Positions 20,116 to 63,994 of a stretch of DNA of 64,000 nt are shown here, one piece after another. Every line of letters starts with the position of its first letter. Position 1 is the stretch's first letter. The DNA lies in the sequence record MK524176.1; one strand, given 5' to 3'. This stretch comes from Escherichia phage PHB11. Both the position numbers and the translations under genes were made by a program. A model generated the notes under the pieces. It was given only the letters and a program-made list of their open reading frames with translations, had not been told where the DNA came from and did not search any database.

Positions 20116-20390
20116 GGCTACTGCCATCCTTCCATACATTACCTTACCTTACCTCACCTGACCTGACCTGACCCTACCTAACATTACCGTGCCACACCTC
20201 ACTTAAAAACCCTCTTAAAAGACTCTTAAGTGATGTAAGTCTCATTTTAATGTAGCTGAGACTAACTACCCATACCTGACCGAACATTACTAGGCCTTAC
20301 CAGACACTACAGAACAGGACAGCACCGCACCTTATTAAAAGACCCTGTTTAAAGACCTTTTAAAAAGGAGCCTCCGAAGAGGCTACCTAG
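20116..20390. repeat. Non-coding pentamer-periodic element E1 (copy 1 of 2)
   Basis: Starts GGCTACTGCCATCC; runs of NNACC pentamers (TTACC TTACC TTACC TCACC TGACC TGACC TGACC ...); conserved blocks C, B, A shared with 21519-21793; ends in GAGCCTC-CGAA-GAGGCTC hairpin. Confidence 0.7.
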
Positions 20391-20395
20391 TCAAC

Positions 20396-20836
20396 TTAGA
20401 AAGGTTTTCTACGTTGCTTGTTAATGTTAGCTTTCATAGCAGCTAAGTGGTTTTGCTGTTCAATCAGTCGTGAGCGTTCTTGATGGCTAAGTTCCATAGT
20501 GTTCACATTCTCAATAGCTTGAGTGGCTTGCTTTAAAGCTCGACCAATCTTACCAGACATTTTACGTTTTGCAATAGTTGCTTGATGTTTAGGTTCAACC
20601 ACACGATAACCAACACCCATTGAAGCAACCAGATAAATCTTCTCTTCTTTAAGAAGCTTCTCAATAAACTTCTCAAGTCGGTTTAGACGTGTAAGTGCAT
20701 AAGCCTTCATTTCATCTTCGTACTTAACAATGTCGCCTTGATAAGTTGGCTTCACAATACCTAAGAAGGTGTCCATCTCAGAATGTGATACAGTGTCACC
20801 GTAACTAAACTTTGCTGCTAATGCTTTTGTATTCAT
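20396..20836 (-). CDS. Hypothetical protein (cassette gene 2)
   Basis: 146 aa ORF, basic C-terminus; flanked by the E1/E2 repeat elements. Confidence 0.4.
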   Translation of the reverse strand: MNTKALAAKFSYGDTVSHSEMDTFLGIVKPTYQGDIVKYEDEMKAYALTRLNRLEKFIEKLLKEEKIYLVASMGVGYRVVEPKHQATIAKRKMSGKIGRALKQATQAIENVNTMELSHQERSRLIEQQNHLAAMKANINKQRRKPF

Positions 20837-20838
20837 AA

Positions 20839-21441
20839 TTAAACGTTACCTTCTGAAATAACTTCTACAGAAAAACGACCAAAGCGTGGACGCCAATCAC
20901 CTACACCACAAAGGTTACCAGCATTTTCCAGAACCATCAGGAGTTCCTCTCGTGTGATTTGCTCTTCATCGAACATCAAACCGAACTCTACAGACCAGTC
21001 ACGGAAGATTGGACGGTAGCTCATAACTCGTGCTGTACCAATCTTAACAGACTTAGCATAGATAAAGTCTGGATTCTTAGCAAGTTCTTGTGGGTTTGCT
21101 GGACAGTTCTTGATAGTCATTGGGAAGACTACATCTGTCAGCATAATGGCTCGGTCAATTACCTTACCAAGTTTGTTGAGTTTTGCACCAGACTTGATGC
21201 AAGCCTCAATCATCTCACCGTTCATAACAAAACCTAGTTGCTCATCGTAGTAACAAGAAGTTACCAGTTGGCTTTCTGCTAAGAGCGCATAGTCTTCGTC
21301 AGTCTTTTTACGTTTACTGGACAGAGACTTGTGATATTTTGTCAGAGGATTTAACGGGTCTGACAACGTATCGTTATGGCTCAGGAAAGGACGAGTACCA
21401 GTGATTTTGATATTTAACAGTTTCATAGCATTTAGCTCCAC
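20839..21441 (-). CDS. Hypothetical protein (cassette gene 1)
   Basis: 200 aa ORF with GGAG SD upstream; flanked by the E1/E2 repeat elements. Confidence 0.4.
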
Positions 21442-21518
21442 ACTTTAGTTGATTGTTAAGTTGTTTGTAAAGAACCCTCAACAGAAGACTCTTTAGAAAC
21501 TTGGTAGATTTTTAACGT

Positions 21519-21793
21519 GGCTACTACCATCCACCCATACCGTGCCACACCACACCGGACTATACCATGCCCAACCCTACTACACCAGACCTTATTAAAA
21601 GACCCTCTTAAAAGACCTTTTAAAAAGGTAAGTCTCATTTTAATGTAGTTGAGACTAACTACCCATACCTTACCGCACCGGACATTACCGGACCGCACAT
21701 CACCGCACCAAACCAAACATCACATTACCTGACCTCACCGCGCCTTACCATACCTCACTTAAAAACCCCTCTTAAAGATTCTTAAGTGATGCT
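21519..21793. repeat. Non-coding pentamer-periodic element E2 (copy 2 of 2)
   Basis: Starts GGCTACTACCATCC; NNACC pentamer runs (TTACC GCACC GGACA TTACC GGACC GCACA TCACC GCACC AAACC ...); same blocks as E1 but order A-B-...-C. Confidence 0.7.
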
Positions 21794-21821
21794 GGTGAGT
21801 ACCCGTTGGTTTATGCTGCTC

Positions 21822-21849
21822 AGTATACTCACCAAATTTTCTATGTCAA
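21822..21849 (-). promoter_or_regulatory. Sigma70-like promoter just downstream of the ligase stop, reading into E2 and the cassette
   Basis: On the - strand: TTGACA, 16 bp spacer, TATACT. Confidence 0.45.
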
Positions 21850-21855
21850 CAACTT

Positions 21856-62090: not shown

Positions 62091-62119
62091 TTGACAATAC
62101 CCCTTGACATTGGTAATGT
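62091..62119 (+). promoter_or_regulatory. Additional promoter-like element with tandem TTGACA boxes
   Basis: TTGACA at 62091 and 62104; TAATGT 17 bp after the first. Confidence 0.35.
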
Positions 62120-62187
62120 TGTTCGAGGGGGTTTATCTAAAAGGGATTCACTTAAAAGATTCTTTATAGATAAACTGAAAAAATTGC

Positions 62188-62278
62188 TTGCAATCAGATA
62201 TCAAAGCAAGTAAATTACTAATCAACGGGAGGGATGACCTCCCCACTAAGTAAAGTCCTTAAACTAGGAGATTCTAAA
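62188..62278 (+). promoter_or_regulatory. Early cassette, class B
   Basis: TTGCAA, 17 bp spacer, TAAATT, ATCAACGGGAGGGATGACCTCCCC hairpin, TIR ...CTAGGAGATTCTAAAATG. Confidence 0.45.
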
Positions 62279-62809
62279 ATGAACAAGTTCAAAGCTATCA
62301 ATTACATTCGTTCAAATAGTGTTATGTCAAAACCTGTTAAAGACACTTACGAATTCCGTTGCAATGGTGTACACTTCGCAACCATCACCAAATCAGAAAA
62401 CGGGGCTTATTACGTCCATCGCCGTAATGTTGCAACTGTTGTAGTCTCTCATTTTATGCAAGCTATCGCGGAATTATTACCGTTATTCTTAGAGATTTAT
62501 CTAGATGATTGTAAAAACGTTCACAATCACGTTAAAAACCTTTTAAATGGTTATAAAATGGCTTATGAACGTTCTATCAAGTCCTTGAACAAGTTCTATA
62601 AAGCCCCTGTAAATACCGTTTCAATGGCCTACGGTATAGGTGGCTGGACTGTTAACCTTTCTCTAGTGGAAGAAATCGAACTTTATGATTTACGTCCTAG
62701 CGGTTACTCTAAGACACTGGGAGAAGGTTTAACGTTCAATATCAAGAACTTAGAAAAAACTTTAAAAGATATTGAAAAAGATATTGACGAGACAATCAAA
62801 AATCTGTAA
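62279..62809 (+). CDS. Small early-region protein, unknown
   Basis: Start set at MNKFKAI (62279); the track start 62234 reads through the TIR. Confidence 0.45.
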   Translation: MNKFKAINYIRSNSVMSKPVKDTYEFRCNGVHFATITKSENGAYYVHRRNVATVVVSHFMQAIAELLPLFLEIYLDDCKNVHNHVKNLLNGYKMAYERSIKSLNKFYKAPVNTVSMAYGIGGWTVNLSLVEEIELYDLRPSGYSKTLGEGLTFNIKNLEKTLKDIEKDIDETIKNL

Positions 62810-62878
62810 ATTGTCAATCAACGGGGAGGGGATGACCTTCCCCACTAAGTAAAGCCCTTAAACTAGGAGATTCAAAAA
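62784..62878 (+). promoter_or_regulatory. Early cassette, class B; promoter embedded in the 3' end of the upstream gene
   Basis: TTGACG, 17 bp spacer, TAAATT (overlapping stop codon), ATCAACGGGGAGGGGATGACCTTCCCC hairpin, conserved TIR. Confidence 0.45.
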
Positions 62879-63127
62879 ATGGCAACTATCCGCGCAACTG
62901 TTAACGAATTTGGCTTCTACTCTCTGGATGTTAAATTTGACCTTGTAGGCACTAACAACGCCTTTGAAATGGTGAAAGGCCTTATCAGTCAGATAATCAA
63001 AGATTATAATCCTTCGGATGAGTTCTGGGAAGAAACAAAACAGGAAGTTTTTACGCATGGTCACACTTATTACTATTGGGGAGAAAAAATCGTCTCCTTG
63101 TACTACGATAAACAAGGTTGCAACTAA
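62879..63127 (+). CDS. Small early-region protein, unknown
   Basis: 82 aa ORF preceded by a class B cassette. Confidence 0.45.
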   Translation: MATIRATVNEFGFYSLDVKFDLVGTNNAFEMVKGLISQIIKDYNPSDEFWEETKQEVFTHGHTYYYWGEKIVSLYYDKQGCN

Positions 63128-63165
63128 TCAACGCAACGGGGCTAAATAGCCCCAGATACCTGAAC

Positions 63166-63191
63166 AGCCCCTATTTAAAGGGGCTTTTTTA
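63166..63191 (+). terminator. Intrinsic terminator closing the early array
   Basis: AGCCCCT-ATTTA-AAGGGGCT hairpin followed by TTTTTT. Confidence 0.6.
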
Positions 63192-63529
63192 CGTCTAGCG
63201 AATCCTTATACAATCCCTTTCCACCTCCTTTCTAGAATCTTATCAGACCTTAAAAAGCAATAACTCTATAGCTTACTCTATAGCCCCTTATCAAATCAAC
63301 TTAAATATAAGCCCATAACCCGAAAGGGAAGGGCAACCATTAATTGGTATTGTTACCAATCCCTAAAACGCTCTATAAAGCTCTATAACAGCCTTATCAA
63401 TCTAACTTAAGGGATTGCATTACCTCACCCTTAAAAGCCCTTTATAGAGCTTCCCAGAGCCTTAAAAGAATCTTATAAGGGTGTGAGCTTTATCATCTCG
63501 TTAGCTATCTTGTGAATAACTAAAAAGGG

Positions 63530-63994
63530 CTTGTTAGTGTCTTAAAAGTATGTTATAGGGGCTTAAAAGTTACTTTGAAGTAGCTTAAAAGTTACTTTGA
63601 AGTAGCTTAAAAGTTACGTAAATGCTAGCCCCCTTAACATTTTCTTAACAATTTCTTAACAAACCCTACATAGTTATGCTTTTAAGGCACTTGTTAGCAA
63701 CTTGTTAGCCCCTTGTTAAATCTCTGTTAATACCTCGTAAAAGCCTTGTAAGAGCCTTTGGCATAGCCTTTAAAGCCCCTGTAAAGCCCTATAAAGAGCT
63801 TTCTATATAGTTGGGGTGTAATTACTAGAAAGAGACTAAAAAGAGCTTATAAGGAGCTATAAAGGGCTTTTAAGAGGGCTATTTAAAAGGTCACTAAGAG
63901 GGAAAGGGAACGATAAGAAAAGAGATAGTGACCATGTTAACAGCTTGTTAAAAAGATTAAACACTTGTTAGGAACTTGTTAATTATCTTAACAA
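63530..63994. repeat. Cluster of CTTGTTA(R) motifs in both orientations in non-coding DNA
   Basis: CTTGTTAG/CTTGTTAA at 63530, 63690, 63701, 63712, 63944, 63964, 63975; inverted CTTAACAA at 63644, 63655, 63987. Confidence 0.6.
63561..63617. repeat. Tandem direct repeat, 22 bp unit, about 2.6 copies
   Basis: GCTTAAAAGTTACTTTGAAGTA at 63561 and 63583, partial copy at 63605. Confidence 0.7.

Follow-up and report, generated by a model that had tools for sequence, protein, structure and literature searches.

The 64,000-nucleotide stretch of the Escherichia phage PHB11 genome analysed here (record MK524176.1; hereafter the window) comprises three gene blocks of alternating strand followed by a gene-free stretch (Table 1). 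Around 260 Felixounavirus genomes, from phages of Salmonella, E. coli and Shigella, match it at ~87–96% identity, its gene order is that of Felix O1, and by sequence it is Felixounavirus, a Felix O1-like myovirus. The group around Felix O1 supplies classical phages for the typing of Salmonella and is widely used in biocontrol and therapy. Our subject is an 8-base word, CTTAAAAG (complement CTTTTAAG; both strands are counted), which a sequence-only reading of the window had described as marking most non-coding regions and as a possible phage-specific recognition element, for instance a late or middle promoter core. The word is enriched in non-coding DNA, is phased at about one helical turn and gathers at a few hubs, one at the boundary of the direct terminal repeat and others at promoters, which are conserved or constrained. 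It is almost certainly heterogeneous, a marker of several different things instead of a single signal, and it is very probably not a promoter core.

Enrichment of the word in non-coding DNA

The window holds 31 copies of CTTAAAAG/CTTTTAAG, against 5.43 ± 2.28 (maximum 13) in 100 dinucleotide-preserving shuffles. Under a greedy open reading frame (ORF) mask, which assigns 6.9% of the window (4.4 kb) to non-coding and 59.6 kb to coding DNA, 17 copies are non-coding (3.8 per kb) and 14 coding (0.24 per kb). Analytic Markov expectations of order 0 to 4 place only 0.28 to 4.8 copies in the non-coding fraction; with the terminal region removed, nine non-coding copies remain at 2.5 per kb, where 0.22 to 2.7 are expected. 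Base composition is ruled out as the cause, because A+T content is 64.5% in non-coding against 61% in coding DNA and the excess stands over the Markov models, and the enrichment noted in the sequence-only reading is borne out. Felix O1, with its curated annotation, carries 16 non-coding and 13 coding copies (2.0 versus 0.17 per kb, ~12-fold). Coding DNA itself shows the word ~2–3-fold above Markov models (13 versus 4.5–6.1).

Of 37 non-coding regions that measure 35 bp or more, 8 have exact copies, leaving 29 with none, and 20 have copies with up to one mismatch, so the word cannot be said to mark most non-coding regions. The positions at which the sequence-only reading had placed it are nevertheless correct: CTTAAAAG stands at 26959, 27005 and 27092 (the polymerase region), 62151, 63430, 63461, 63541, 63562, 63584 and 63606, and at 20214 and 21607 in the blocks E1 and E2, where it reads CCCTCTTAAAAGAC both times; CTTTTAAG stands at 13452, 63679 and 63867. 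A further stretch, 32671–32690, is word-like as had been noted, but holds variants only (CTCTAAAAG and CTTTAAAG) and no exact copy. The polymerase divergent region contributes three non-coding copies, the promoter module at 62091 one and the terminal region eight.

The plus strand carries 13 of the 17 non-coding copies, and the distance from word to start codon is not fixed, ranging from 8 to >150 nt. Several copies are not independent, because they are situated in duplicated DNA (56874/57725, 20214/21607 and 63562/63584/63606). Some other sequences exceed the word in their non-coding enrichment: GGGGCTTA/TAAGCCCC, which form hairpin stems, CCTTAAACTAGGAGATTC, a ribosome-site module, and AAAGTACTTT.

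Helical phasing

Closely spaced words keep a regular distance. Of the CTTNNAAG pairs no more than 45 bp apart, 20 out of 22 are separated by 10–12, 21–23, 31–34 or 42–45 bp (binomial P = 2e-7), and omitting pairs inside a 22-bp tandem array leaves 10 of 12 on this lattice (P = 1.3e-3). Spacings peak at 11, 21–23, 31–33 and 42–44 bp. A related TGTTA(A/G) family, measured across the complete terminal region of phage UAB_69, peaks at 11, 20–22 and 31–33 bp. Direct and inverted arrangements are indistinguishable here because the CTT-NN-AAG frame of the words is self-complementary.

The terminal region and the direct terminal repeat

Between 63128 and 63910, eight exact copies and eleven with one mismatch stand on an ~11-bp lattice; the sequence-only count of about 20 is thus close (19) if one mismatch is allowed, but too high for exact copies. 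A promoter role in this region is unlikely because the setting is convergent, hairpins and a terminator precede the arrays, and only one, weak promoter-like site is present (shuffles give 2.1).

The record of UAB_69 annotates a 618-bp direct terminal repeat, and alignment to it puts the left boundary of the repeat in the window at ~63626; by homology the repeat extends beyond the window end, to ~64240. Two independent GenBank records, NBSal004 and ECOH1, start within a few bases of ~63626, and in UAB_Phi87 a 608-bp repeat was determined experimentally by Bal31 digestion and run-off sequencing (PMC4837284). The words of the CTTAAAAG array (63541–63613) stop 13 bp short of the repeat. Inside it lies a second family, TGTTAAG/CTTGTTA, which is essentially restricted to the terminal region and separate from the dispersed word signal, followed after the CTTGTTA array by variant runs of TAAAGCC and TATAAG type (Table 1).

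This organization can be traced between genera. The terminal region can be aligned across Felixounavirus, Suspvirus (SUSP1) and Mooglevirus (Michonne) and is homologous in UAB_69 and nataliec. The second word of the conserved pair (63461) and the adjoining CTTATAAG (63472) are invariant in 10 sequences from three genera, as is CCTTAAAAGAATCTTATAAGGG in 10 of 10 sequences of the terminal alignment. At the right boundary of the repeat, which lies beyond the window, UAB_69, nataliec, SUSP1 and Michonne have flanking TGTTAAG-type arrays, a different word. Erwinia phage phiEa21-4 has an equivalent 1.2-kb gap with the same architecture: its left arrays are of CTTCTAA(G/A), with 9 of the 22 plus-strand CTTCTAA copies of the genome inside 300 bp, and its right arrays of TGTTAAG. 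CTTAAAAG is not enriched in the phiEa21-4 genome. Among close relatives, array unit and copy number vary at the left edge of the repeat; a relative from IMG/VR (2974574300, L027) has a 33-bp unit ×4 with CTTAACATTTT ×5, versus the 22-bp unit ×2.6 of the window (63541–63662).

Four further observations concern this region. A palindromic element, (TAATT)GGTATTGTTACCAATCCCT, lies left of the repeat in the window (63341–63364) and deep inside it in UAB_69 (L001, 4863); it has two copies in one relative (L033, 3471 and 4088), occurs also in L030 (4131) and is missing from six others, and on these grounds behaves like a small mobile or indel-prone (insertion- or deletion-prone) element. Both annotated repeat boundaries of UAB_69 (L001, ~4468 and ~5085) fall at a similar heptamer (aaatGC/TAGCC and gggCTACC/AAGC, the slash marking the boundary). 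Just past the right boundary, AAGCAGATATACA is conserved even in phiEa21-4 (L003, ~17440–17480), and this stretch is a possible cleavage or recognition site. Finally, GenBank GU169904 (147 kb, “Staphylococcus phage SA1”) matches the terminal region of the window at 88% over 1.8 kb; judged by this match, it probably contains Felix-O1-like DNA, that is, it is a chimeric or contaminated record.

Predicted double-TTGACA promoters and the AT-rich polymerase hub

The second setting of the word is a small class of promoters, P97, P22 and P41, predicted from hexamers and spacing in the sequence (P97 by homology with P41 and P22). The arrangement TTGACA-N6/7-TTGACA occurs exactly three times in Felix O1, once in each of these promoters, always in non-coding DNA on the plus strand and after an A-tract, and an exact CTTAAAAG follows each module by 30–43 bp. 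Shuffles of the window give 0.17 double hexamers; the window has two (26911 and 62091), the third lying outside it, before Felix O1 gene 41 (21515). In P97 and P22 the word is ~18–31 nt downstream of the −10 hexamer. Words begin eighteen bases after the TAATCT of P97 (CTTAAAAGGTTACTTAACAG, CTCTTAAAAGATTATTTAATAG and TTACTTAAAAGAGG), and the module at 62091 is followed by CTAAAAGGG and CTTAAAAGATTCTTTATAG. Across nine related loci, both hexamers of P22 and the word are invariant and the bases between the hexamers variable. Relatives also have a double-TTGACA module at the head of the structural operon. A simple promoter scan did not list P97.

In their paper on the Felix O1 genome, Whichard et al. 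list only P41 of this class, with a 15-nt spacer, and recognise no promoters in the polymerase divergent (96–97) region; their reverse-transcription PCR has ORFs 41 and 97 peaking at 25 min, and temporal regulation and the read-through of many terminators are described as not understood (PMC3185647). In the searchable literature we met no account of the lattice of words, of promoters with doubled TTGACA or of the AT-rich hub treated below; for a Felix-O1 promoter or terminus motif it returned only the 57-bp repeat of Whichard et al., and for CCTAAAG nothing relevant.

P97 lies in the polymerase divergent region (26881–27107) and opens into the AT-richest 150 bp of the window (26951–27100; GC 0.21 versus 0.388 ± 0.036), which is likewise the AT-richest 150 bp of Felix O1 and phiEa21-4. 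The stretch contains TTACTTAAAAG three times (one copy 91% identical), and a 27-nt imperfect palindrome spans 26992–27046. Among 21 distinct sequences, 4.4% of its columns vary, versus 15% for the N-terminal coding part of the polymerase, 7.6% for ORF97 and 31% for ORF98. The leader 26945–27120 folds with z = −2.2. In phiEa21-4 the promoter of the polymerase region is followed by phased CTTAACAG/CTTTAAAG/CTTCTATAG, and the region equivalent to the Felix O1 40–41 divergent region has CTTAAAAGCCTTTAAAG.

Extreme AT-richness, internal repeats and a place beside a promoter and replication genes are features of origins of the promoter plus AT-rich type; 26951–27100, which shows them, may be a replication origin or a control hub. 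It also coincides with the strand switch and with the minimum of cumulative GC skew. Literature searches made for other purposes, none aimed at origins, turned up no origin mapping for the Felix-O1-like group.

Copies in terminators, cassettes and duplicated blocks

Outside these hubs the word accompanies other elements. Three copies belong to terminators, as a T-tail running into a ribosome site or as an A-arm (Table 1). Others lie among repeated promoter cassettes between 56855 and 61716. Seven cassettes of type A share TTTACA-N17/18-TAnnnT, with the spacer and −10 within a GGGGCTTA...TAAGCCCC hairpin; three of type B have TTGACA-N17-TAAATT and a GGGGAGG hairpin of their own. The promoter scan detects all cassettes of both types, and after each comes CCTTAAACTAGGAGATTCAAAAATG, a ribosome-site module. 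The word sits in the promoter spacer of two of the seven type A cassettes and is incidental there, because the five other copies spell the hairpin arm differently. No terminator was called at the type A hairpins, whose stems are followed by AGATAAAG and not by a T-run. At the ribosome sites of early genes, the module CCTTAAACTAGGAG may be akin to the leader of T7 gene 10, which carries the ‘epsilon’ enhancer TTAACTTTAAGAAGGAG.

The type A cassette is the counterpart of a 57-bp repeat known from Felix O1 (PMC3185647). Both types recall the PeSL elements of T4-type phages, in which a sigma70-like promoter (TTTACW-N17-TAYWAT, T4/PST pair) and a stem-loop are repeated between small early ORFs, in association with indels (PMC2839356, PMC4122927). 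An indel bounded by the E blocks adds to this likeness. Unlike in PeSLs, the window hairpin overlaps the promoter spacer and −10, lacks a U-tract and is not an obvious terminator, and the word is an incidental part of it.

The E1 and E2 blocks, ~250 bp duplicated at 20008–20395 and 21456–21855, flank two ORFs (20396–20836 and 20839–21441) with no tblastn match in Felix O1; read from the sequence, this interval is the indel in question, bounded by repeated regulatory blocks. The blocks also hold a TACCT ×10.8 run (20135–20188), a TTGACA promoter on the minus strand and a conserved hairpin.

Candidate DNA-binding proteins

Ten proteins of the window were scanned against Pfam. The only one with a Pfam match is a 109-residue Cro/C1-type helix-turn-helix (HTH) protein, whose matches are all to HTH-type DNA-binding families and which is 94% identical to Felix O1 ORF85, a ‘transcriptional regulator’. 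It also has a sub-threshold match to Sigma70_r4 (20.6 bits; cut-off 24.1). No sigma factor was found among the ten, and the Felix O1 genome paper likewise reports no sigma factor or polymerase modifier (PMC3185647). Compared by eye, not formally, the words gave no convincing match to the consensus sites of IHF, Fis, H-NS or DnaA or to the T4 MotA box. A perfect 17-bp palindrome, CTTAAAAGcCTTTTAAG, precedes Felix O1 gene 41 (21626), outside the window; the dyads of the window are imperfect. In the window as a whole, a covariance-model scan against Rfam at the gathering threshold matched no family, and a transfer RNA scan found none.

Table 1. Genes and sequence features of the window discussed in the text (strand left empty where none applies)
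Feature	Position	Strand	Details
Tail, baseplate and fibre genes	1–16487	+	
Thymidylate synthase to DNA polymerase block	16524–26880	−	
Replication, nucleotide-metabolism and small early genes	27108–63127	+	Long block
Gene-free stretch, left part of ~1.6-kb terminal region between convergent gene blocks	63128–64000		Runs to the window end, which cuts the region
Two hairpins closing the + operon	63138–63191	+	GGGGCTAAATAGCCCC; intrinsic terminator AGCCCCTATTTAAAGGGGCT, then T-run
Conserved word pair	63426–63482	+	CACCCTTAAAAGCCCTTTATAGAGC...AGCCTTAAAAGAATCTTATAAGGG
CTTAAAAG array	63541–63617	+	22-bp unit GCTTAAAAGTTACTTTGAAGTA ×2.6 at 63561–63617
Direct terminal repeat	63626–64000		Left boundary ~63626 (...GTTACGTAAATGC/TAGCCCCCTTAACA...), by alignment to the UAB_69 repeat
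Second word family in the repeat	63633–63730		CTTAACA ×3 (63633–63662); complement CTTGTTA(G/A) ×4 (63689–63730); 11-bp period
Runs of word variants, 10–11 bp	within 63733–63890		GTAAAAGCC, TTGTAAGAGCC, TTTAAAGCCC, CTGTAAAGCC, CTATAAAGAGC
Further runs, 10–11 bp	within 63733–63890		CTAAAAAGAGC, TTATAAGGAGC, TATAAAGGGC, TTTTAAGAGGGC
P97 module, predicted	26911–26940	+	TTGACA-ATGTAC-TTGACA...TAATCT (TTGACA-N18-TAATCT); A-rich tract before
AT-rich word region, P97 to first + gene	26951–27107	+	Words at 26959, 27005, 27092
P22 module, predicted	62091–62170	+	TTGACA-ATACCCC-TTGACA-TTGG-TAATGT, then CTAAAAG (62137) and CTTAAAAGATTCTTTATAG (62151)
Cro/C1-type HTH protein, 109 residues	19118–19447	−	Pfam HTH_3, E = 5e-11; candidate trans factor only
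E1 block core	20197–20260		CTTAAAAACCCTCTTAAAAGACTCTTAAGTG and hairpin GTAAGTCTCA...TGAGACTAAC
E2 block core, duplicate of E1	21590–21655		ATTAAAAGACCCTCTTAAAAGACCTTTTAAAAAGG and hairpin as in E1
Type A cassette with word (56874)	56855–56945	+	TTTACA-N17-TATCTT; hairpin GGGGCTTAAAAG...CTTAAGCCCC; word is 5′ arm and loop
Second type A cassette with exact word (57725)	57706–57795	+	
Type A cassettes lacking the exact word	57327, 58309, 59571, 60359, 60700		GGGGCTTATAG, GGGGCTAACAAG, GGGGCTTATAAG, GGGGCTTAAAAAG, GGGGTTATCAAG in its place
Putative by-product copy (13452)	13427–13472	+	Terminator GGGGCTTTGTAGCCCC; T-tail into AAGAGG ribosome site (CCCCTTTTAAGAGGAAA)
Putative by-product copy (52008)	51998–52040	+	Word is A-arm of terminator AAAAGGCTGCTTCGGCGGCCTTTT
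Putative by-product copy (61375)	61328–61393	+	Terminator AGCCCCTTGTAGGGGCT; T-tail and AAGAGG ribosome site

Discussion

The idea of a phage-specific element survives in part: the word is lineage-specific and non-random, and a subset of copies is tied to the double-TTGACA promoters, but it is not one signal. We propose that CTTAAAAG may be the commonest spelling of a degenerate, near-palindromic 8-bp unit, CTT-NN-AAG with an A/T core, which Felix-O1-like phages would set on an ~11-bp lattice, one helical turn, at a few conserved cis-acting hubs. Hub 1 is the gene-free region at the terminal repeat, with the CTTAAAAG array outside and the CTTAACA/CTTGTTA/TGTTAAG family filling the repeat; hub 2 is the 150-bp AT-rich stretch near the DNA polymerase gene, directly after the predicted double-TTGACA promoter of sigma70 type. 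Words phased in this way would lie on the same side of the helix, open to contact by a DNA-binding or architectural protein, either phage-encoded or a nucleoid protein of the host, or would form bent, easily melted DNA. Arrays at the terminus would organise terminase recognition, end processing and packaging, and those at promoter hubs would serve promoter-proximal control, replication initiation or both. The remaining exact copies are very probably by-products, in terminator T- or A-tails next to AAGAGG, in the hairpin arm of two of the seven type A cassettes, in E1/E2 and, for about 12 of them, in coding DNA. Taken as a whole, the picture of phased arrays that are read at the DNA level for terminus and promoter or origin functions seems to us evenly poised between right and wrong.

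Several results weigh against it. In the terminal alignment, word columns show no conservation beyond that of the DNA around them (0.745 versus 0.814 identity to the window), and in some relatives the copy closest to the boundary reads CTATAAAG, TTATAAAG or CTTCAAAG, next to an invariant AAAGTTACGTAAA. Tandem duplication alone can generate locally phased repeats. Over the whole region, Fourier power at 11 bp reaches only about the 95th percentile of control windows or little above, a borderline result than which the pairwise spacing test is more informative. In phiEa21-4 the terminal-left word has become CTTCTAAG, and the promoter hubs keep CTTAAAAG, CTTTAAAG and CTTAACAG. No binding protein was identified here, and the literature searched, with no search aimed at origins, gave no mapped transcription start site or origin for these phages.

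Known systems offer partial parallels. The left end of T7 carries CCTAAAG/CTTAAAG/CATAAAG every 10–12 bp inside and beside its 160-bp terminal repeat, as we checked in its sequence; these are the arrays called SRL and SRR by Dunn and Studier, and they are not known to have a defined function. Like T7, the window has arrays of an A-rich word of 7–8 bp, about one per helical turn, in gene-free DNA that includes a short direct terminal repeat and its immediate surroundings. The differences are considerable: T7 is a podovirus with its own RNA polymerase and the Felix type a myovirus using the host polymerase, and in the window the word is a different one, the region larger (~1.6 kb) and set between convergent gene blocks, a second family (TGTTAAG) is present and the word is re-used at promoter hubs. 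The primary origin of T7, phi1.1A/B followed by an AT-rich segment, has CTTAAG/CTTTAAG words ~11–12 bp apart, and the polymerase hub similarly joins a promoter to the most AT-rich local segment beside replication genes; its promoter, unlike that of T7, is host sigma70-like, and the comparison is an analogy, not a demonstrated homology.

Among the alternatives, the word pairs near promoters may be operators of a specific repressor or activator, for example the HTH protein, switching P97, P22, P41 and the E-block promoters. Such a Cro/C1-type protein is encoded in the window, E1 lies upstream of the operon with its gene, and, as in Cro/CI operators, short dyads (11–12 bp apart, at ~+12 to +40 from the predicted start) stand near strong early promoters; the palindrome before Felix O1 gene 41 is perfect, and at P22 the word is invariant where the DNA between the hexamers is not. 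Unlike Cro/CI operators, however, most pairs of the window are imperfect, lie downstream of −10 and recur as large arrays far from promoters; those of the promoter-less terminal region are left unexplained; nothing links the HTH protein, a candidate only, to the word sites, and self-complementary CTT..AAG reads as a direct or an inverted repeat alike. We regard an operator role as unlikely.

We are similarly doubtful that the word has no sequence-specific function and reflects the grammar of non-coding DNA (T-runs, AAGAGG sites and AT-rich leaders) together with tandem and dispersed duplication. At least three copies come from terminators, as tails joined to ribosome sites or as A-arms, seven lie in duplicated DNA, array copy number varies between relatives, and the words are neither better conserved than their flanks nor the most enriched in non-coding DNA. 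This reading would nonetheless have to accommodate an enrichment that persists over a fourth-order Markov background, pairs that remain phased outside the array, a word at three of three double-TTGACA modules, hubs more conserved than the neighbouring genes and an architecture kept in other genera.

A narrower form of the lattice proposal is that one phage-encoded architectural or regulatory protein reads CTT-NN-AAG at both the terminus and the operon heads (P97, P41 and P22), and this we think rather improbable. A single co-evolving factor fits poorly because the terminal-left word changes between genera and the promoter-hub words mostly do not. Precedents exist in phi29 p6 and SPO1 TF1, which bind periodically and with sequence tolerance at genome ends and near early promoters; arrays of this type link replication or end functions with transcriptional switching. 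phi29 has protein-primed replication and no terminal repeat of the Felix kind, and no homologue of p6 or TF1 was identified here. If one such protein did exist, it would tie the early-to-middle switch in transcription to the processing of ends or the initiation of replication, functionally resembling p6 and TF1 with a different protein and helically phased 8-bp words.

It is quite improbable that gene-proximal copies act in RNA leaders, as translational enhancers, standby sites or targets of an RNA-binding regulator. The plus-strand bias of the non-coding copies, the location of those outside E1 and the terminal region in plus-strand operons, the place of hub copies in 5′ leaders if the predicted promoters are real, the fold of the polymerase leader and the possible likeness of CCTTAAACTAGGAG to the T7 gene-10 leader would all suit such a role. 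Against it, the terminal arrays lie beyond two hairpins, one of them a terminator, with no gene for them to act on, the copies in E1/E2 and the genes around them are on opposite strands and the Rfam scan gave no match; the leader is nearly invariant and thus too uniform to show covariation.

The least probable account, and a very remote one, is the sequence-only suggestion of a phage-specific middle or late promoter core, read by a phage-encoded sigma or RNA-polymerase-modifying factor: the word does follow all three double-TTGACA promoters, which head major transcription units, and the temporal regulation of Felix O1, with its 25-min peak of ORFs 41 and 97, is unexplained in the literature searched and explicitly so in the genome paper (PMC3185647), but it lies downstream of −10 or inside the promoter spacer at no fixed distance from start codons, the convergent region that contains 8 of the 17 non-coding copies has neither a downstream gene nor an excess of promoter-like sites, only terminator-tail copies precede the structural genes (1–16487), most non-coding regions lack it and the ten proteins scanned include no sigma factor.

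As a ‘motif’, the word itself is of limited value. The features beneath it are undescribed and testable, if unsurprising in kind, and they give this phage group concrete cis elements. One is a class of three predicted promoters, each with a doubled −35 hexamer and a pair of words downstream; another is the AT-rich region, which hardly varies and is a candidate for an origin or for control; a third is the word lattice bracketing the boundary of the terminal repeat. These can guide phage engineering, both in choosing sites for the insertion of DNA and in recognising regions that are better left intact.

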